From a virus, in IMG/VR virus record IMGVR_UViG_3300009720_000014: a stretch of 24,953 bases of DNA, one strand, 5' to 3'. A model generated the notes under the pieces. It searched no databases. It was not told where the DNA came from and saw only the letters and a program-made list of their open reading frames with translations. Shown in pieces: positions 1,371-14,098 of this stretch; positions within the stretch are counted from its first letter, which is position 1; every line of letters begins with the position of its first letter. A program made the position numbers and the translations under genes.

Positions 1371-3203
1371 ATGGCCGGTTTTACGATGAGGTCTTTGGAC
1401 GGAAGACGTCTAGGATTTGTCAAAAATATTCAAAAAAATATACGAAATCTTTCCTCCCTTGGAATGAGATGGGATGAGAAAGTTATTAAGCAATCAAAGT
1501 CTATAGGTATTGCCGAAAGCCAGCTTGATTCCATGTATGGTTTATATTACCAAGGGAATTATGCAGGAACAGACTACGGTCAAAAAGAATTTATTGCTTA
1601 TTTTGACAAGGAGTATCCCACAAGAAGAGATTTTCTTCGAAAATTTGCAATGAATGGAGAAATAGAAAACATTCTTGAAATTATCGCAGATGAATCGGTT
1701 ATCTATGATGATAACAATTATTTTGCATATCCTAATACTGCTAATCTAAAGGGGGTTCTAAAACAAGATAAAGCTAAAGAAATCGTTGATGATTTAAATG
1801 AAGCTTTCAGAAAAATTTATTATGCTTTTAAATTTAACCAATCTCATGATGCTTGGCATTATTTTAAAAAATTCTTAATTGACGGATTTCTTTCCTTCGA
1901 AATTATTTATGATGGCGAGGGAGATAATGATGCTAAAAATATTATCGCTCTCAAAGAAGTAGATCCAATATCTCTAGAACCAGAAGTTCGTATTGGAGAA
2001 GACGGTCACGAATATCGTGTCTGGATCCAGTATCGAGGGGATTCAAGAAAGCAAAGGGAATTACTTGATGGTAACTTAATTTACATATCTTGGGCAAGGG
2101 GAAACTTCATTTCCAGATTATCATACGTTGAAAGATTAGTTCGTTCATTTAATATGATGAGAACCCTTGAAAATTCACGTATTATTTGGAACGTTTGGAA
2201 TGCCCAAATGAGGGTTAAAATATTAGTTCCTATAGGAACTCAGTCGGATGCTAAAGCTCGTACGAGACTTTCTGAATTGAGGGGTATGTATAAAGAGGAA
2301 CTTAATATAGACGATCATTCCGGGGAAGTAACTTATAATGGAAGCCCGCAATTTAATTTTGCAAAAACTTTTGTTGTTCCAACAAGAGATGGACAGCAAA
2401 CCGAAATTGATGGGTTTCAACCTCAAGGATATAACTTAGGAGATACAGATGCTCTAAGATATTTCTTGCAGAGGTTCCTTATAGAAACTAAGGTTCCTTC
2501 ATCTCGTTTTTCCAATGACCCAACTCAGGGGCCTCAAGGACAGTGGGGAGCTGGTGCAGAAGGTATTGCTAGGGAGGAATTAAGATTTAGTAACTTTATC
2601 ACCAGAATTCGTTCTATTTTTCAGGAGATCTTATTAAAACCCCTATGGATCCAGTTTATTTTACAGCATCCCGAATTTAGGGATGATGAAATTCTCAAAG
2701 CATCTATTGGTCTTGAATTCATCGAAGAAAACTTCTTTAAGATGATGAAGGAAAGAGATATTGCGGAAAAAGGTGCCAATACAGTTAATGCTTTGATGGG
2801 TATTAAAGAACCTACCGTTAATCCAGACGGAAGTCCTGGCGAGAAAAATTTCTTTGACCCAAAATTCCTTGTTGAAAAATATATGGAATTCTCCGAAGCA
2901 GATATGAAATTGAATGCTAAGTATAAGAAAGAACGAGATGAAGAAATTAAGAAACTTGCTCGTGCTTATGCAAGAATAGCTGCTGCAAGTGGAGGAGGAG
3001 CTGCTGGAGCAGGTGGCGGCGGTGGCGAAGCTGGAGGATTATTTGGAGGCGGTGGCGAAGCTGGAGGAGGATTATTTGGCGGCGGCGGTGAACTCGGAGG
3101 GGGTGAACTTGGTGGTGGAGGCGAACTTGGAGGAGGTGAACTCGGGGGAGGCGAAGCTGGAGCTGAAACCCCCGAAGCTGGAGGAGAAGAATTAGGGTTA
3201 TAA
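1371..3203 (+). CDS. gp20: T4 gp20-like portal protein with Gly-rich C-terminal tail
   Basis: EIENILEIIADE, FKKFLIDGFLSFEII, I.ALKEVDP, LSYVERLVRSFN.MRTLENSRIIW, ELRGMYK, TFVVPTRDGQQTEID, YF..R....TKVPSSRF and REELRFSNFITRIRSIF follow the gp20 portal pattern. Confidence 0.92.
   Translation: MAGFTMRSLDGRRLGFVKNIQKNIRNLSSLGMRWDEKVIKQSKSIGIAESQLDSMYGLYYQGNYAGTDYGQKEFIAYFDKEYPTRRDFLRKFAMNGEIENILEIIADESVIYDDNNYFAYPNTANLKGVLKQDKAKEIVDDLNEAFRKIYYAFKFNQSHDAWHYFKKFLIDGFLSFEIIYDGEGDNDAKNIIALKEVDPISLEPEVRIGEDGHEYRVWIQYRGDSRKQRELLDGNLIYISWARGNFISRLSYVERLVRSFNMMRTLENSRIIWNVWNAQMRVKILVPIGTQSDAKARTRLSELRGMYKEELNIDDHSGEVTYNGSPQFNFAKTFVVPTRDGQQTEIDGFQPQGYNLGDTDALRYFLQRFLIETKVPSSRFSNDPTQGPQGQWGAGAEGIAREELRFSNFITRIRSIFQEILLKPLWIQFILQHPEFRDDEILKASIGLEFIEENFFKMMKERDIAEKGANTVNALMGIKEPTVNPDGSPGEKNFFDPKFLVEKYMEFSEADMKLNAKYKKERDEEIKKLARAYARIAAASGGGAAGAGGGGGEAGGLFGGGGEAGGGLFGGGGELGGGELGGGGELGGGELGGGEAGAETPEAGGEELGL
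2979..3200 (+). repeat. Gly-rich GGG(G)E[A/L] low-complexity repeat at the portal C-terminus
   Basis: About 74 aa with seven GGG(G)E[A/L] units, two followed by GG(G)LF; locally GC-rich. Confidence 0.9.
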
Positions 3204-3768: not shown

Positions 3769-4494
3769 ATGAGAGCACAATTTGTAAGGGGCCAGAATCC
3801 CAAAAAAACAATGGGTATCGGATTATTAGCTCAAAAGGAAAGACTAATAAAAATGCTACCAGAAATTGTGGGAAATACCATGGCATTACACAAACAAGAT
3901 ATAAATGCTTTAAAAAAGTCTATAAGAAATAAAAAAACTATAGTTTCTTTTAATAATGGAAAATTAAAAGTAATTAATCCAGATCTTTCAATATTTTTCT
4001 TTACCAGTTTAAAAAGTTATCTAAATTTTTGGGCTACGGACCAAGTTCAAAATTATAGAAAAACACCAGATGGCGCCGAATATGATTTAATTACAAATGA
4101 ATCTCAAAATTTTGAGAGAGGATTAGATCCTAGGCAAGCTATGGAAATAGGTCTAAAAACATGGGATAAAATTTCTCCTGGATATATTCTTAAACCCAAA
4201 AAAGAGGTTTATGTTAGTAATAAGGGAAATTTTGCAGCAGAATATGGCAGTGCTGATACTATATGGCAAGATATGTATATTTTAATTCTTTTAGTACAAA
4301 AAATATGGGATAAAGAATTACACAAAGAAATAATTTACACAAATTATACAAAATGCTGGACATTGCCCGAAGCTATTGAAAAAAGTAAAGGGGATCTAGA
4401 TAAACTTGGTGCTAGAAGAATGTTCGGAACCCAAAAGCAATTTGAAAATAGATTTGAAATTATTCAGAGAAAAGATGAAAGCAAAAATAGTTAA
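3769..4494 (+). CDS. hypothetical protein with two FERG-type motifs (N-terminal and internal)
   Basis: Starts MRAQFVRGQNPKKTMGIG; internal NESQNFERGLDPRQAMEIG at 4093-4152. Confidence 0.85.
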   Translation: MRAQFVRGQNPKKTMGIGLLAQKERLIKMLPEIVGNTMALHKQDINALKKSIRNKKTIVSFNNGKLKVINPDLSIFFFTSLKSYLNFWATDQVQNYRKTPDGAEYDLITNESQNFERGLDPRQAMEIGLKTWDKISPGYILKPKKEVYVSNKGNFAAEYGSADTIWQDMYILILLVQKIWDKELHKEIIYTNYTKCWTLPEAIEKSKGDLDKLGARRMFGTQKQFENRFEIIQRKDESKNS

Positions 4495-4606: not shown

Positions 4607-4869
4607 ATGCTACTACTTGCTGAAATTATTCTTACCATTTTTGCCTGGAGAAAAGGTTATAAATGGCTATCTCTTCTTCCTGTTGGTGTAGGACTTATAA
4701 CAGGATTTATACTTGGAGCAGGAATTGCAGCATCCGGGGGGATGTTGTTACTGCAAGAGGTCTTTCCATATTCATTGATCTTTTAGTAATAGTTGCCCTT
4801 GTCGGCATGCTTCTTGCTAAAAAACAGACGAAAGACCTGGAAAAAACAGATTTGACTGAAAATAAATAA
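4607..4869 (+). pseudogene. membrane protein gene split by a frameshift at a G6 run (87 aa if G7)
   Basis: The frame from ATG 4607 (MLLLAEIILTIFAWRKGYKWLSLLPVGVGLITGFILGAGIAASGG) stops at 4786. The hydrophobic continuation DVVTARGLSIFIDLLVIVALVGMLLAKK... lies in the -1 frame right after G6 (4736-4741). Confidence 0.65.
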
Positions 4870-4870
4870 A
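4861..4870 (+). promoter_or_regulatory. RATAWATARA motif (candidate late promoter) directly upstream of the tmRNA acceptor piece
   Basis: AATAAATAAA; the same consensus recurs upstream of eight protein genes in this window. Confidence 0.45.
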
Positions 4871-4871
4871 A

Positions 4872-4942
4872 TACTGAGAACTGCTGAAAAGCTAGTTATA
4901 GAGTAGGTATGTAAGACGCGGGTTCGAATCCCGCCACCTCCA
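4872..4942 (+). ncRNA. ssrA: two-piece tmRNA, acceptor piece (T-arm plus 3' acceptor strand)
   Basis: T-stem GCGGG 4918-4922 / CCCGC 4930-4934, loop TTCGAAT, acceptor strand CACCTCC 4935-4941, discriminator A4942; full CCA not encoded (followed by CAG). The 5' boundary is estimated. Confidence 0.88.
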
Positions 4943-5128
4943 CAGTCGACGGGCCAGAAATGGAAAAACACGTCACTACTTTAGTTTCCGATTTTCAACT
5001 CTAAAAATCGGTGGTGGAATCCTGACCTCCGTCCAGTTTCTGGAATTACCGGTCAGCCCCGTTCTCTACCTTTGGTAGGGAACCTTCAAAGGCTTTGGTG
5101 ATTGAGCCCGCTAATCAATCATCTTTAT
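4943..5128 (+). other. structured intervening sequence of the permuted tmRNA (186 nt, ~46% GC)
   Basis: Lies between the 3' acceptor end and the 5' GGGGGTG end; contains at least four hairpins and a 14-codon ORF (4960-5004). Confidence 0.75.
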
Positions 5129-5275
5129 GGGGGTGACTTGGCTTTGATTGCATATTGAGGGCAATGATGAACGTCTCAGAACGCGAATAAACGGCGCAAA
5201 TGTTTATGAAATGAAAATGGCTGCTTAAGAAGCACCCATTTACAGGAGACTTGCCGGCAGCCTAAGTGCCGGCTT
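5129..5275 (+). ncRNA. ssrA: two-piece tmRNA, coding piece (5' acceptor strand plus tag reading frame GANVYEMKMAA*)
   Basis: GGGGGTG 5129-5135 pairs with CACCTCC and gives the G3.U70 Ala determinant. TTGCATAT 5148-5155 pairs with GTATGTAA 4907-4914. Resume context ATAAAC|GGC; tag 5193-5228 ends in AA*; the TAA overlaps a short hairpin (TGCTT/AAGCA). The 3' boundary is estimated. Confidence 0.88.
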
Positions 5276-5279
5276 TTTT
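5253..5279 (+). terminator. intrinsic terminator ending the tmRNA transcript
   Basis: GCCGGCA (5253-5259) / TGCCGGC (5267-5273) stem followed by T6. Confidence 0.85.
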
Positions 5280-5284
5280 CATTA

Positions 5285-5294
5285 GATAAATAAA
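5285..5294 (+). promoter_or_regulatory. RATAWATARA motif (candidate late promoter)
   Basis: GATAAATAAA, 11 nt before ATG 5306, just after the tmRNA terminator. Confidence 0.45.
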
Positions 5295-5305
5295 GAAAAA
5301 GTCTA

Positions 5306-5545
5306 ATGAAAAAAATTATAAAAATTCTTCAAAGATGGTTTGAGCATTATGGGCTAATAAAAATCGTTGCGGCCTTTTTAATTCTCATAATTTGTATCGT
5401 TATTGATCAAAAATTCCGTCCAATTAAATTGGTAGAATATATTGGTATAGCTGCTGCAATTTATCTTTTAATAACGGTAGTTACCTTTACTATTGCAGGA
5501 ATTGTTAATAGTATTAAGGATTTTATAAATAGAAAGAAAGAATGA
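5306..5545 (+). CDS. small membrane protein (two TM segments)
   Basis: Two hydrophobic segments; ATGA overlap with the next gene. Confidence 0.75.
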   Translation: MKKIIKILQRWFEHYGLIKIVAAFLILIICIVIDQKFRPIKLVEYIGIAAAIYLLITVVTFTIAGIVNSIKDFINRKKE

Positions 5546-5922: not shown

Positions 5923-8415
5923 TTGAAAGCCAGATTTATATCCGAAGAATACGGAGATCTAAAAAATAAGAATCAGATAATTCAACAAATTTTATCTGAA
6001 GTCCATGAAGATTCTAGGGAGGAAGTCCTTAGAATGATAATGGAATTATCCAAGGATGAATTTGATGAGTGGGCAGCAAGTCTAGGATATAATAAAATAG
6101 GAAAATACTGGACCATGGCAGATGTCTATGGAGTCGACGAAGCCCAAAATTTTGAAAGGGGGATAGAACCTGCTAAATCTATGAATGTGGGTATGTCCAA
6201 AAGAATTTCAGAATTAATTGAAAATCTTTTAAAATACGAACAAATAGAAAAATCTGATAGGATTCTAGAAATTAGATTTTATCCAGATATAGTTAGCTTT
6301 GGATGTGATAGCGATGATTGGGATGAAAAAGAGGCAATAATTTATATAAGAGATCTTATAAAACAATTTGGCTTAGATCCATTTATAATTCTTTCCCCTG
6401 TAAAAGTTTTTCGTCCAATGGGGGTTATTGACTTTTTATTTGATCTAACAGAATTGGGAAAAAAAGTTTCTCCTATAAAAAGATTTTATATATTAAGCGG
6501 GGGAGAAGTTGAGTCTCAAAATAATGATCATACTTCCTTTCAAGCTTTATTTGGAGCAAAAAAATTGGAAGAAGCCTATCATTTTCAAAGGGGAAGAGAT
6601 CCAAAGAGATCTATTCAAATAGGACAACACTGGAATAAAACTAAATCCCAATTATCCGCAGAAATTGTTAAAAGAGTTGAAGATGAGTGTAAAAGCCTTG
6701 TAAAAGCAGTTAGTGATTTGGCTATTGCTAAAGGATATTCTTCATCATCTGATTATGTTTTTACAGCTTATCCCCCAGAAGGAGGAACAAAAGTTGATGA
6801 TGAAATAGAGGAAGCTATAAAACTTGTAGAAGATAAAGTTTCTGAGATAATGGAAGAATATCCTTTTGATACTTCTAAAGATGATCTAGCTTTAAATGAA
6901 CTTGTAAATTTCATGGTTGTTGGAGAGCCCCCATACGGAACTTTAAGAACTGAAATAGAAGCAGTTCTTGATAATAGTTTAAAAGAATCCAGGTTTGAAA
7001 GAGGTATCGATCCAAAAGAATCCATGAATATCGGGCAAAAAGGAATGAAACAGAGATTATTAGATATGCGTTATCCTGCCCTAAAAAATGCTTCATTATG
7101 GAAAAGAGATTGGGAGGATCTAGATACTTTATTTAATATTCCAGGAGTTAAGGTTCATTTTGTTGGGGATAAGGTAGAAGTAATAATGCCTCAATCAGTT
7201 CCCTTACATTTAAAATCCGCTCTTTTTCAATTACCTATTATGATTAATTTTGAAAAAGAAAAAATAAAGAAATTTGTTACAACTCAGGATGCAGCAGGTA
7301 ATACTTATGAAACTTTCAAAATATTAGAATCTGTTAATTTTGAAAGGGGATCAGATCCAAAAGAAATGATGGATATAGGAAGGGATAGAAGCGATGCCCC
7401 CGATGAACAAATATTTTTAAGAATGCATGAAGAGGCTTCTAAATCTCCTAATTTTCAACATGTTTCCGAGATAGATTGGAAAAATAAGGAGCCAATGTTT
7501 ACTATTAAATCCAAAAAAATAATTACAGTAAAAAGAACTTTTAGGGATTATGAAAATGAATTCAGGGAAGGATATGTAAATGAGCCAGAGCTATTTACAA
7601 TTTATTTAACTAAGGACCAAGGGATTACCATGTTTAATGATTTAACAGATGATGAATATGAGGATCTTACATTTAAAGAATTTCTTAGTATTACTAATTG
7701 CCGTAGTATAAAAGAATCAATAAATTTTGAGCGAGGAATTGATCCTAAAGATTCTATGAATATAGGAATTCCCGGTATTAGAGCTATGTCTAAAATGAAA
7801 CCTGGCATTATATATCGTACAGAGGACAAGCGATGGTATTATTATTTCTTCTTTAAAAATCCCCAGGATAATGAAGTTTATTATAGTTTTTCTTCAAGCC
7901 GAGAAAAAATTCATGCATATAGATTTCTAAGTAAACATAAACCAAATGATTTTCCTTTGGATTTAATACCAACAGGAAAACATTTTGATAAGTATTTGCC
8001 AAAGGTAACATTTGTAGATGAGTCCTTAAATTTTGAACGAGGAAAAGATGTTAAAAAATCTATGGATATAGGATTAGAACATAAATATGGCCGAATGTAT
8101 AATTTGTTCACTATTTGCCATAACTTATCTTTGAATTCCGATAGTTTTGAATGGGTATCCGATATTGTATGGAATCCAAATGATGCTGATAATCCTTATT
8201 TTAATATTGATTCTTTCTATTATTACACAGATGAAGATGAGAATAATATTACGGAAAAATTTGTTGTTAGACTATTTCCTAATTATCTAGAAGTTTATAA
8301 TGTAATTACAGAAGAGGAAGAAGAAGTAAGATCTGTTCGAAAATTCATAGAGATTACTTCTGCTTATGAGGAAGATACTGCTAGGGAATTAGGGGAATAC
8401 CTAAAGGATTTTTAA
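5923..8415 (+). CDS. 830-aa modular protein with six FERG motifs (candidate protease-processed polyprotein / internal head protein)
   Basis: Motif copies at 6133-6192, 6565-6624, 6979-7035, 7321-7380, 7708-7767 and 8014-8073, each preceded by [ILV]-x-E|[SA]; N-terminus MKARFISE. The confidence applies to the CDS; the function is inferred. Confidence 0.85.
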   Translation: MKARFISEEYGDLKNKNQIIQQILSEVHEDSREEVLRMIMELSKDEFDEWAASLGYNKIGKYWTMADVYGVDEAQNFERGIEPAKSMNVGMSKRISELIENLLKYEQIEKSDRILEIRFYPDIVSFGCDSDDWDEKEAIIYIRDLIKQFGLDPFIILSPVKVFRPMGVIDFLFDLTELGKKVSPIKRFYILSGGEVESQNNDHTSFQALFGAKKLEEAYHFQRGRDPKRSIQIGQHWNKTKSQLSAEIVKRVEDECKSLVKAVSDLAIAKGYSSSSDYVFTAYPPEGGTKVDDEIEEAIKLVEDKVSEIMEEYPFDTSKDDLALNELVNFMVVGEPPYGTLRTEIEAVLDNSLKESRFERGIDPKESMNIGQKGMKQRLLDMRYPALKNASLWKRDWEDLDTLFNIPGVKVHFVGDKVEVIMPQSVPLHLKSALFQLPIMINFEKEKIKKFVTTQDAAGNTYETFKILESVNFERGSDPKEMMDIGRDRSDAPDEQIFLRMHEEASKSPNFQHVSEIDWKNKEPMFTIKSKKIITVKRTFRDYENEFREGYVNEPELFTIYLTKDQGITMFNDLTDDEYEDLTFKEFLSITNCRSIKESINFERGIDPKDSMNIGIPGIRAMSKMKPGIIYRTEDKRWYYYFFFKNPQDNEVYYSFSSSREKIHAYRFLSKHKPNDFPLDLIPTGKHFDKYLPKVTFVDESLNFERGKDVKKSMDIGLEHKYGRMYNLFTICHNLSLNSDSFEWVSDIVWNPNDADNPYFNIDSFYYYTDEDENNITEKFVVRLFPNYLEVYNVITEEEEEVRSVRKFIEITSAYEEDTARELGEYLKDF

Positions 8416-8459: not shown

Positions 8460-9239
8460 ATGAAAGCTGGATCTTTTAACCTAAATGACTATCTACAGCG
8501 TCTTCACGAAGAAAAGGAAGCTACTTCCAAAGTTCCTGATGAAGGAATTATTATCCCTGAAGAAAACAAGAAGTCTTTTTCGTGGCTAAAAAAAGAATAC
8601 CAAAAAGGTAGGACCGAAGTTAAAGTCGAAATGAAATTGGGTGGTGCAAAATTTGAACCTGGGTATGAACTTCAAACTAACCTAAAAAGTGTTAAAGATT
8701 TTAAACCCGGAATGTTTGGTGATGTTAAAACTTCTGATACCGAAGGCAGTAAAAAGAAAGAAGAAGGACAGAAAGAAGAAGGAAAAGGCGGCGAAAAACC
8801 TGCTAAACAAGCTCCTAAAAAAAGTAATGGAGTAGCGGTTAAGGCTGTCGAAACTGAGGAAAAAGACGAAGAAAAGCCAGCTGACAAAAAGGAAGAAAAG
8901 AAAAAAGTAAATGAAGGATTTCAGGTTATAAAACCAGGAGAAGAAAATCTTGAGCCAGAAGCTTCAGTTTACTTAAGAAATCTTCCGATGACAAGGAAAC
9001 CAGCGGATATTGACGATCTTTATTATGCTAAGAAAATCAAAGTTGATCCTCAACTTGAAGCTATTTTAGATGTTCTTCCAGTAGTAGAATTTGATACTTA
9101 TGAAGATCTTTTAGGAAATTATACCGAGGAAATTCCAAGAACATTTTTCATTGCAAATGTTCTCGAAGAAGATGGAGTTAGTTTCCTTGTTGACCCAAGT
9201 GGATTTGAATATGCAAGATATATTGCAGAATTAATATAA
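8460..9239 (+). CDS. hypothetical protein with a charged low-complexity linker
   Basis: Long ORF with a K/E-rich centre; the C-terminal domain begins after V-N-E|G and ends FLVDPSGFEYARYIAELI. Confidence 0.8.
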   Translation: MKAGSFNLNDYLQRLHEEKEATSKVPDEGIIIPEENKKSFSWLKKEYQKGRTEVKVEMKLGGAKFEPGYELQTNLKSVKDFKPGMFGDVKTSDTEGSKKKEEGQKEEGKGGEKPAKQAPKKSNGVAVKAVETEEKDEEKPADKKEEKKKVNEGFQVIKPGEENLEPEASVYLRNLPMTRKPADIDDLYYAKKIKVDPQLEAILDVLPVVEFDTYEDLLGNYTEEIPRTFFIANVLEEDGVSFLVDPSGFEYARYIAELI

Positions 9240-9610: not shown

Positions 9611-11023
9611 ATGTCTTATACAAGTAGTCTTCCTTATAAGGTGAAAGACATTTCTTTATCTGACTTTGGTCGCAAGGAGATCGAGATAGCAGAGAAAGAA
9701 ATGCCTGGATTAATGTCAATACGAAAAAAATACTCAAACTTAAAACCTCTTAAAGGAGCTCGTATTACTGGCTCCCTTCACATGACTATTCAAACAGCTG
9801 TTTTAATTGAAACATTAGTTGAATTAGGAGCTGAAGTAAGATGGGCCAGCTGCAATATATTTTCAACACAAGATCATGCCGCTGCTGCAATTGCCGCAAA
9901 AGGTATTCCGGTGTTTGCATGGAAAGGGGAAACATTAGAAGAATATTGGTGGTGCACTGCTCAAGCTCTTTGCTTCCCTAATGGCGAAGGACCCAATCTT
10001 ATAGTTGATGATGGCGGAGACGCTACTCTTATGATTCATAAAGGAGTTCAATTTGAATTTGATAAAGGTAGAAAAGTTCTTTCCGGGATGTCTCATGAAG
10101 AACGAGCTCTTTATGAAATGCTTGATGAAATCTATAAAAAAGATACATATTTCTGGTATAATTTATCTAGATTTGTTAAGGGGGTATCTGAAGAAACTAC
10201 CACTGGAGTTCATAGACTTTATCAGATGCTTGAAAAAGGAGAATTGCTTTTTCCTGCAATAAATGTCAATGACTCCGTAACTAAATCAAAATTTGATAAT
10301 CTTTACGGATGCCGAGAATCTCTCGCTGATGGAATAAAAAGAGCTACAGATGTAATGATTGCTGGAAAAGTAGTTGTTGTTTGCGGATATGGTGATGTTG
10401 GAAAAGGATGTGCAAAATCTATGAGAGCTTATGGAGCCAGGGTTATAGTTACTGAAATAGATCCTATCTGCGCTCTTCAAGCAGCTATGGAAGGTTTTGA
10501 AGTTAAAACCATCGAGGATTCTTTAGGAGAGGGAAACATCTACGTAACTACGACAGGAAATAAAGATGTTATTACTTTGGAGCATATGAAAGCCATGAAG
10601 GATCAATCAATTGTATGCAACATCGGGCATTTTGATAATGAAATCCAAGTGGATCGTCTTAATGCAGATCCTAATATTAAAAAAATCAATATTAAACCCC
10701 AAGTTGATAAGTATATTACATCTGAAGTTAAAGAAATTTTTCTTCTTGCGGAAGGACGTTTAGTTAATCTCGGGTGTGCTACAGGCCATCCATCATTTGT
10801 AATGAGTAATTCTTTTACCAATCAAACTTTAGCTCAAATTGAACTTTGGACTAAAAAATATAAAGTGGGGGTTTATCGTCTTCCAAAAGAATTGGACGAG
10901 GAGGTTGCAAGACTTCATTTGGAGCAAATTGGTGTAAAATTGACCAAATTATCTGAAGAACAAGCTGATTATATTGGAGTTCCTATAGAAGGACCATATA
11001 AACCGGATCATTATAGATATTAA
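9611..11023 (+). CDS. ahcY: adenosylhomocysteinase (S-adenosyl-L-homocysteine hydrolase)
   Basis: Canonical motifs [77 protein letters not shown] (NAD binding), GHFDNE and [21 protein letters not shown] are all present. Confidence 0.98.
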
Positions 11024-12507: not shown

Positions 12508-13143
12508 ATGCATAGGGAAAACATTTCAATTCAAAATCTCGCTATAGATTTTTTGGAACAAAAAGACAATAGAACATTTTCATCATTAATTAAAAGATTA
12601 AAACCAGGATTAGTTTCTTTTGTCTATGGTTTTGTTCAGGATACAGATCTCTCCAGAGAAATTGTATCGAAAACTTTTATTGCGGTATGGGAAAAAATTG
12701 ACCAATATAATAAAGACTATAATTTTAGTACTTGGGTTTATGCCATTGCTAAAAACGAAGCTCTTGGTCAATTACGCCTAAAAAGTAAAACTTTATCCAG
12801 GGATAAACTTTCGGAAAACCATTCAAAACTTCTCAAAGTTTATACTCCTTTAACTTCCATTAATATAGAAGTTATCGGACCTACTGGGGAAAAGTTAACT
12901 TCAGAGCTCTATGAAAAAGTTCTCGAGGAAATTGAAAGCCTTGAAGAACCTTACAGGACAGTAATTTTCGAAAGAGAGATAAATAATAAAAGACTCCAAG
13001 ATATTGCTGTTGATCTTGATTGGAATCTTAATACTGTTAAGACCCGTTTGAGAAAAGCAAGAAAGGATGTTGCTGATCGTCTTAGAGAAAAACATCCCGG
13101 ACTTATTGAAGCTTATTATGATGAAAGCGAAGCAGAATTCTAA
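12508..13143 (+). CDS. ECF-type (sigma-70 family) RNA polymerase sigma factor
   Basis: Region 2 (D....IVSKTFIAVW..I..YN...NFSTWVYAIAKN) and region 4 HTH (LEEPYRTVIFEREINNKRLQDIAVDLDWNLNTVKTRLRKAR). Confidence 0.9.
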   Translation: MHRENISIQNLAIDFLEQKDNRTFSSLIKRLKPGLVSFVYGFVQDTDLSREIVSKTFIAVWEKIDQYNKDYNFSTWVYAIAKNEALGQLRLKSKTLSRDKLSENHSKLLKVYTPLTSINIEVIGPTGEKLTSELYEKVLEEIESLEEPYRTVIFEREINNKRLQDIAVDLDWNLNTVKTRLRKARKDVADRLREKHPGLIEAYYDESEAEF

Positions 13144-13750: not shown

Positions 13751-13783
13751 AAAAAATCCTCCTAATTAGGGGGATTTTTTTTT
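13751..13783. terminator. bidirectional intrinsic terminator between the convergent blocks
   Basis: Near-perfect palindrome AAAAAATCCTCCTAA|TTAGGGGGATTTTTT with T-tracts on both strands; overlaps the stop of 13766-14098. Confidence 0.8.
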
Positions 13784-14098
13784 GCCAAATTTTATACCTT
13801 TTACAGGTCGTATAAAAACTGTTTCTTCAATATCTGGATTATCCTCCACATCTATTCCTAAGCGATCCATCATAGGTTTATACCTTGGCCAAGTTCTGAC
13901 AAATTCTATAAATCCATCTTTTTCATCGGAATTAAAAAATCCATCTTCATAAACATTTACAAATCCCAGATATTGAGGATCATTTGGATCCATTTGATAA
14001 TCGTTAGCAATGGATTCTAAAAACTTTTCTACCTTAGCATCAGTTCCAATTCCCATAGCTTTTTTAGGATTCTGCCCTCTTATGAATCTAGCTCTCAT
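13766..14098 (-). CDS. hypothetical protein with an N-terminal FERG-type motif
   Basis: Starts MRARFIRGQNPKKAMGIG, 15/18 identical to the start of 3769-4494; ATGA overlap with the upstream gene. Confidence 0.8.
   Translation of the reverse strand: MRARFIRGQNPKKAMGIGTDAKVEKFLESIANDYQMDPNDPQYLGFVNVYEDGFFNSDEKDGFIEFVRTWPRYKPMMDRLGIDVEDNPDIEETVFIRPVKGIKFGKKKSP

Follow-up and report, generated by a model that had tools for sequence, protein, structure and literature searches.

Among the relatives of the Lak megaphages, one uncultured giant phage encodes a protein that is a fusion of seven small independent domains, six of them headed by a copy of one conserved peptide. The open reading frame (ORF) in question occupies positions 5923–8415 (plus strand) of a 24,953-nucleotide stretch of DNA, IMG/VR virus record IMGVR_UViG_3300009720_000014, which is referred to here as the window. 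The repeated peptide – named the FERG tag here, after its central residues – serves a large phage-specific family as a portable N-terminal tag, which is exposed and read in trans. The reading that we favour, with a confidence that is evenly poised, is that of a fused-domain polyprotein in which the tag combines a prohead-protease site with a retained handle for capsid loading or recognition. Much the same had been proposed from the letters of the window alone (the sequence-only reading), as a capsid-packaged polyprotein maturing into small proteins that share an addressing tag. The modules, the linear peptide tag, the T4-type site and the presence of a protease in the clade all speak for that proposal; its cleavage, virion presence and ejection are unsupported.

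Translation places six tag copies exactly at the codons given in the sequence-only reading, with the preceding VDE, LEE, LKE, ILE, IKE and VDE starting at 6133, 6565, 6979, 7321, 7708 and 8014, and cuts after the corresponding Glu residues (73, 217, 355, 469, 598 and 700) would yield pieces of 73, 144, 138, 114, 129, 102 and 130 residues, just as it had calculated. F-E/Q-R-G lies at residues 77, 221, 358, 473, 602 and 704 and is followed by x-[DE]-[PV]-x-x-[SM]-[MI]-x-[IV]-G. The copies also differ from one another in synonymous codons: GAA/GAG and AGG/AGA/CGA, as the same reading had noted, and GGG/GGA/GGT. The parts of the ORF are as follows.

5923–8415 (+): multi-module ORF of 830 residues with a TTG start, comprising a leader, untagged module 0 and six tagged modules
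5923–5946 (+): N-terminal leader MKARFISE, ending in I-S-E; the leader of the clade reads M-[RK]-A-[KR]-F-[VI]-x-E
5947–6132 (+): module 0 (residues 9–70), modelled as helical at low confidence and lacking its own FERG tag
6133–6192 (+): tag copy 1, VDE followed by AQNFERGIEPAKSMNVG
6193–6564 (+): module 1 body, with 17 homologous modules in the local set
6565–6624 (+): tag copy 2, LEE followed by AYHFQRGRDPKRSIQIG
6625–6978 (+): module 2 body, with 22 homologous modules, two of them in a syntenic protein of fragment G004
6979–7035 (+): tag copy 3, LKE followed by SRFERGIDPKESMNIG, its spacer one residue short (E-S-R-F)
7036–7320 (+): module 3 body, seen in close orthologues only
7321–7380 (+): tag copy 4, ILE followed by SVNFERGSDPKEMMDIG, modelled with low confidence (score about 50, see below)
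7381–7707 (+): module 4 body, a confidently predicted alpha+beta sandwich (score >90) and a paralogue of module 6
7708–7767 (+): tag copy 5, IKE followed by SINFERGIDPKDSMNIG, modelled with a score of 54–59
7768–8013 (+): module 5 body, forming with tag 5 the 102-residue unit 598–699
8014–8073 (+): tag copy 6, VDE followed by SLNFERGKDVKKSMDIG
8074–8412 (+): module 6 body, a paralogue of module 4

The independence of the modules, which the sequence-only reading had assumed, is borne out by bodies that are mostly unrelated to one another and by units that are gained, lost, permuted and also found standing alone. Once stripped of their tags, the module bodies, about 850 in number, sort into 253 sequence clusters. 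Within the window protein, modules 4 and 6 are paralogous and modules 1, 2 and 5 have relatives in other proteins, and the same module families occur both as stand-alone tagged genes and within chains of up to nine. Metagenomes hold a 99% identical 830-residue protein as well as 730-residue orthologues (>90% identical) from which exactly residues 598–699, one tag-to-tag unit, are missing. A further relative, P0025, carries an extra 110-residue unit inserted inside tag 3, the copy that in the window has the short spacer, and P0026 and the syntenic G004 protein contain the same module families in another order.

Structure prediction places the tags outside any continuous fold – the sequence-only reading had named a motif integral to one such fold as the outcome that would contradict it. 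An AlphaFold2 construct spanning residues 460–622 (tag 4, the body of module 4 and tag 5; about 15 informative alignment rows) gave predicted local distance difference test (pLDDT) scores of 92–97 for construct residues 41–130, which form a helix, long beta-hairpins and a terminal helix. The flanking tags 4 and 5 scored about 50 and 54–59, although they are the best-conserved columns of the alignment; the modelled tag contains at most a one-turn helix at P-K-x-x and is not packed against the body of module 4. As modelled, the tag thus resembles a linear motif carried by a flexible linker. A full-length AlphaFold2 model, built from close orthologues alone, was uninformative (pLDDT 35.6). Of the module-by-module structural comparison that had been suggested, the part that covered the confident fold of module 4, a Foldseek search against PDB and BFVD, returned no match at E <= 0.001. 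A frataxin/CyaY-like alpha+beta sandwich was considered for module 4 (VIA-align, Z about 8) and set aside, as the score is within the range of orphan models, and no function is inferred from it. Self-cleavage, at the Glu–Ser bond or at D-P, was likewise dismissed, the motif being predicted to be unstructured, with no fold able to strain the bond.

How widely the tag is distributed was assessed with a 30-column profile built from seven internal copies of the window and scored against 1.84 billion representative proteins. At E <= 1e-3 it matched 896 proteins, a number that falls to 58 at E <= 1e-30; there are up to 12 copies per protein, in 1,511 residues, and in a near-identical relative every copy scores 52–62 bits (E 1e-15 to 1e-18), far more than chance would give. 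Distant multi-module proteins, in which the peptide separates segments unrelated to one another, also came out of a word-indexed search. At the nucleotide level, a back-translated tag pattern was found in 72 stretches of IMG/VR, often many per contig, and in two stretches of 596 Gb of bacterial and archaeal genomes, of which one is real (a 2.9-kb contig from an archaeal metagenome-assembled genome). Five IMG/VR fragments of 66–137 kb carry 8–34 tag copies each, the highest number being that of fragment G002. A related-locus search with the whole 830-residue protein returned near-identical contigs only. As no tag copy was found in the complete Lak-A1 genome or in LR756500.1, the tag system is not a general Lak feature; judged from these sequences, the tag is specific to a sub-clade of Lak-related phages and essentially phage-only. 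For the ORF and the tag, nothing informative emerged from Pfam, from PHROGs, from the ESM Atlas or from searching PDB sequences with the tag profile; by tblastn, the ORF had no match in 50,697 phage records, and full-text literature searches with motif strings and for megaphage cargo found no published description of the tag. By sequence, then, the tagged proteins form a large and previously unannotated family.

The anatomy of the tag is best described from residue counts over 483 internal copies in 156 representative proteins, with the Phe of FERG taken as position 0.

Position −6: L/I/V/M in 84%
Position −4: E in 97.5%
Position −3: S in 79%, then A, N and G
Position −2: V/L/I in 75%
Position −1: mostly N or D
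Position 0 onwards: F-E-R-G-x-D-P-K-x-[AS]-[ML]-x-I-G

In sequence terms, the consensus is [LIV]-x-E-S-[VLI]-[ND]-F-E-R-G-x-D-P-K-x-[SA]-[ML]-x-I-G, 20 residues long. Upstream of position −6 there is no conservation, hydrophilic residues predominating, and Ala is found at −6 (P3 of a cut after Glu) in 11 of the 483 copies. To the sequence-only reading, the presence of [ILV]-x-E before the tags of homologues was decisive, and a T4-type [L/I]-x-E indeed fits hundreds of them. Even among copies found by the downstream half alone, 418/428 have E at −4 and 373/428 have [LIVMF]-x-E, for which the background is 2.9% per position.

The tag nearly always heads a unit of about 117 residues, and most genes consist of a single such unit. 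An ORF scan of G002, G003, G004 and the window puts 46/77 copies no more than 21 residues from the ORF start, the remaining ones being spaced about 100–160 residues apart; in the representative proteins, the median spacing is 117 residues. Among the open frames of the fetched viral stretches, 131 distinct ones have a single copy and 44 have two to nine. N-terminal forms include MNFERG, MRAxFIRG, MIVKE followed by S-x-NFERG, and MRAKFVxE followed by x-x-NFERG. The leader of the window protein, MKARFISE, had been likened to the capsid-targeting sequence of T4, a resemblance that proves not to be specific: it belongs to the leader class MRAKFVxE, M-[RK]-A-[KR]-F-[VI]-x-E across the clade, which also heads some genes that lack a FERG block.

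Internal and N-terminal copies differ in the Glu at −4, which is present in 450/461 of the former versus 128/161 of the latter (pooled; Fisher p = 1.7e-12). The sole internal exception among phage ORFs is copy 3 of the window, which keeps L-K-E behind a shorter spacer. That this Glu is near-obligatory internally and dispensable at true N-termini could be explained because a cut or hinge would be needed only where something lies upstream. The [LIV]-x-E pattern, read from sequence, thus matches the prediction of a cut site and suggests one, since a pure binding epitope should need [LIV]-x-E everywhere.

A protease of the appropriate type is encoded by relatives. Fragment G002, itself tagged, has a Peptidase_S77 domain (55.5 bits, cut-off 27) at the start of an 849-residue frame whose remainder is long, charged and scaffold-like (L100 1456–3369 and L104 3–1157; about 60.7–63.3 kb); a gene annotated as a protease–scaffold fusion is also found in Tenacibaculum phage PTm1. 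Directly 3' of the G002 frame lies a gp23-type capsid gene, whose product reads H-A-L-N-E followed by A-E-M-G-G near residue 50. Mature T4 gp23 starts A-E-I-G-G after L-T-E. Aligned with the L-N-E of G002 is an L/I-x-E in the capsid proteins of Lak-A1, LR756500 and PTm1, and an L-N-D in that of PAU. The T4 gp23 propeptide, 65 residues long, is cut after Glu (PMC5694885), and so are the substrates of T4 gp21 and of the prohead proteases of giant phages in general (PMC9026906, PMC5694885). In G004, the closest large relative, Peptidase_S77 appears only as an 18-bit match: a stand-alone protein of 152 residues (L101 1429–1887, minus strand), encoded between RecA-like and DnaB-like genes and outside the head cluster.

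Taken together, these features would be accommodated by a simple scheme. A prohead protease of the T4 type (Peptidase_S77) would have its site in the first three residues of the tag and cut behind the Glu; what follows, FERG...IG, would remain at the newly formed N-terminus, where it would be a handle for docking or addressing, or else would act as an extended recognition element for the protease; and the polyprotein would enter the prohead and there be cut into seven pieces, six of them bearing the handle. That the retained 14-residue handle might bring roughly a hundred small swappable domains, encoded singly or in polyproteins, into the capsid, for delivery together with the DNA, is a bolder proposition, which we put forward tentatively and hold to be somewhat doubtful. 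Were it true, it would amount to genome-wide plug-and-play cargo addressing without a described counterpart in scale or logic – in logic because the tag is kept, not discarded.

Several considerations weigh against this scheme. Cleavage, the responsible protease, capsid loading and host delivery are inferred from sequence, and the protease and capsid genes were read in relatives of the phage. About 10% of the relatives' ORFs are tagged (21 ORFs in 133 kb of G002), which is very many for one capsid. T4 discards its targeting peptide, which precedes the cut, whereas the conserved part here lies downstream. The tripeptide alone cannot give specificity, because [ILV]-x-E occurs 25 times in the 830-residue protein. 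A beta-strand binding epitope would be an equally good reading of the Glu and the hydrophobic residues at −6, −2 and 0, and in multi-module proteins 104/119 N-terminal copies keep [LIV]-x-E behind a leader of 5–8 residues, which fits a cut and an epitope alike.

The last two points lead to the main rival, on which the protein stays uncut, as beads on a string, and the tag docks one common partner, which might be a chaperone, a host factor, or a phage hub or scaffold located outside the head. Proteins of several modules would then be multivalent assemblies, and [LIV]-x-E-S-[VLI] would form part of the binding strand. We consider this unlikely, albeit less so than any other alternative to cleavage in the prohead. 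It would account for 20 conserved residues, far beyond the known needs of T4-type proteases, for a tag predicted to be flexible in the manner of a short linear motif, for tagged genes that amount to about 10% of ORFs and lie dispersed over the genome, and for the [LIV]-x-E that the majority of N-terminal copies keep in long proteins. It is not expected of a fixed epitope, however, that [LIV]-x-E should be dispensable at real N-termini, such as MNFERG and MRAxFIRG, and near-obligatory internally; nor does module order and number, varying freely as it does, leave room for a conserved multivalent architecture. Next comes a cytoplasmic polyprotein, cut by some other phage or host protease that reads the whole 20-residue tag, which would ensure co-expression and have no link to the capsid. 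The long conserved primed side does resemble the extended sites of specific processing proteases, and tagged genes are also found outside head gene clusters. We nevertheless rate this possibility as rather improbable: the neighbourhood of tagged genes yielded no candidate protease, the domains that Pfam recognises in 123 tagged proteins are limited to ankyrin, GNAT and 2H, a single-module gene that naturally starts with the tag has no need of it for processing, and the tagged genes of the window stand beside the portal gene and at the end of a minus-strand run of large ORFs.

The two remaining explanations deny the tag a role as a signal altogether. Regular spacing and the paralogy of modules 4 and 6 are what an ordinary tandem-repeat protein would display, its copies being integral repeats of one continuous fold; this is contradicted by the 253 body clusters, which include ankyrin and other unrelated domains, by the gain, loss and permutation of units, and by a tag that is unpacked in the models (pLDDT about 50 versus >90 for the body), so that we give it hardly any credence. 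Unit-precise insertions and deletions suggest recombination between copies and might point to a DNA-level repeat – a recombination or regulatory site translated by chance. Selection acts otherwise, as synonymous codons vary where the peptide is kept and the tag peptide is conserved between proteins that are about 25% identical elsewhere; a DNA-level origin is accordingly most improbable, and recombination between tag copies may be a consequence of the repeats.

The favoured polyprotein reading has its closest parallel in the internal proteins of T4 (IPI, IPII, IPIII and Alt), in which a short conserved N-terminal peptide is likewise found on unrelated, fast-evolving small proteins. The site there, [L/I]-x-E, is cut after Glu, and the leaders here, MKARFISE in the ORF and MIVKE or MRAKFVxE in the clade, are short peptides that end in a tripeptide of this kind; the lineage also shows a T4-type portal along with, in the tagged relative G002, an S77 protease domain and a gp23-type capsid protein, and the proposed purpose, packaging variable proteins for delivery, is the same. 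The 10-residue N-terminal targeting peptide of the T4 proteins is removed by gp21 (PMC9026906). The tag differs in that its 14 conserved residues are downstream of the putative cut and would be retained, with 0–8 residues preceding them at N-termini; in recurring internally, up to 12 times; and in being found in dozens of genes per genome rather than a handful. In sequence, the tagged proteins are similar neither to the T4 proteins nor to their targeting peptide, and homology to IPI, IPII, IPIII or Alt was detected neither by Pfam and PHROG searches of the ORF and its neighbours nor by tblastn against the 50,697 phage records.

Three other kinds of protein invite comparison. The polyvalent proteins of phages and conjugative elements, described by Iyer, Burroughs, Anand, de Souza and Aravind in 2017, are predicted to be packaged and some of them also to undergo proteolytic processing (PMC5512222). 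They, too, combine many disparate domains in one phage polypeptide (two to 15 in that class, seven in the ORF) in mosaic order. Their domains are recurrent enzymatic ones, often with an embedded metallopeptidase, none of which was found in the tagged proteins: the window protein has no Pfam domain, and among 123 tagged relatives Pfam recognised only ankyrin, GNAT and one 2H/Acb1-like domain, with no embedded peptidase. No uniform inter-domain tag has been reported for polyvalent proteins, and the modules here, of about 100–145 residues, are mostly orphan folds. The giant phages phiKZ, 201phi2-1 and SPN3US pack about 50 head proteins, many of which are cut after Glu, and paralogous ejection proteins share identical N-terminal propeptides with cut sites (PMC5694885); the phiKZ protease motif is S/A-x-E (PMC9026906). 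These systems differ from the present one in the residue at P3, which here is L/I/V/M in 84% and not S/A/G as for the phiKZ and SPN3US proteases (gp175 and gp245), in removing long propeptides where the chain here would be split into domain-sized products, and in lacking a FERG-like retained motif. Finally, the polyproteins of RNA viruses resemble the ORF, as read here, in yielding several mature proteins from one frame whose flexible linkers repeat a recognition sequence. The parallel is no more than an analogy, as the type of genome is another and the proteases are unrelated, and most members of the FERG family are single genes, with fusion being optional.

Should the tag prove to be a cut-and-address signal, it would provide a sequence rule for predicting the packaged or injected proteins of uncultured megaphages – roughly a tenth of their genes, nearly all of them orphans – and would mean that phages can arrange capsid cargo in polyproteins and in cassettes that are shuffled at will. 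Foreign proteins could, moreover, be loaded into large capsids by means of this compact, portable peptide, a use to which the T4 targeting sequence has already been put. If the tag docks elsewhere, it still defines a large unexplained interaction network, and either way the 20-residue profile classifies about 900 otherwise unannotated protein clusters.

As to what the modules might do, Pfam recognises nothing but ankyrin repeats and GNAT in 76 representative proteins, and ankyrin plus one 2H-phosphoesterase/Acb1-like domain, upstream of a tag, in 47 phage ORFs. The sequence-only reading had imagined effector cargo directed at anti-defence or host takeover, a speculative role whose basis is these few domains of relatives. 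The 2H domain belongs to a 300-residue protein of fragment G003 (L092 5547–6446, plus strand), in which it is followed by a FERG tag and an 85-residue module; the protein matches Pfam 2_5_RNA_ligase2 and, weakly, the anti-CBASS protein Acb1, and has two H-x-T-x motifs. By its sequence the enzyme, which is fused to a tagged unit, is a candidate phosphodiesterase of cyclic nucleotides. A single-module tagged ORF of G002 (152 residues) has at G002:C1:27671-27814 (plus strand) a weak match, which may be chance, to positions 13–61 of Pfam Gp23 (E 0.001, 14.7 bits).

Apart from the six copies in the ORF, the window has three further tag copies, in two other genes.

3769–4494 (+): two-module gene adjoining the portal gene, with the N-terminal tag variant MRAQFVRGQNPKKTMGIG / MRAQFVRGQNPKK...
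13766–14098 (−): single-module gene, with the N-terminal tag variant MRARFIRGQNPKKAMGIG / MRARFIRGQNPKK...

The two-module gene also has an internal canonical tag, NE followed by SQNFERGLDPRQAMEIG, its Phe at 4111 (about residue 115); a homologue search with this gene found 4 proteins only, too few for a fold. The start of the single-module gene overlaps the stop of the gene upstream, in a minus-strand run of large unannotated ORFs. In G001, a near-identical 11.9-kb fragment, the orthologue of the two-module gene (G001:C1:9430-9969, minus strand) has one in-frame TAG in the matched stretch and an extra tag copy in a 33-residue frame. This could reflect a broken gene, a gene boundary or stop-codon recoding. 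Such recoding occurs in Lak phages; the window itself has long intact ORFs with translation table 11.

The window also has a T4-type portal gene (1371–3203, plus strand; Pfam Portal_T4, E 3e-57), whose product is 41% identical to the portals of the Prevotella Lak megaphages and to that of a 462-kb uncultured phage; the portals of IMG/VR fragments G004 and G006 are 84% and 81% identical to it. Between the portal-side genes and the polyprotein, ARAGORN calls a 'tmRNA*' (transfer-messenger RNA; 4853–5319, plus strand) with the tag peptide GANVYEMKMAA. Directly 3' of the polyprotein, positions 8460–9239 (plus strand) encode a 259-residue protein with a long Lys/Glu-rich low-complexity centre, which has no family match apart from a weak one to a PHROG of unknown function. 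Other genes of the window encode a gp2-like DNA end protector, a TnsA-like nuclease, an S-adenosylhomocysteine hydrolase, a thymidylate kinase and a sigma factor; the hydrolase, which is full-length (9611–11023, plus strand; Pfam E 6e-151), and the sigma factor, of the extracytoplasmic function (ECF) type (12508–13143, plus strand), lie near head genes.

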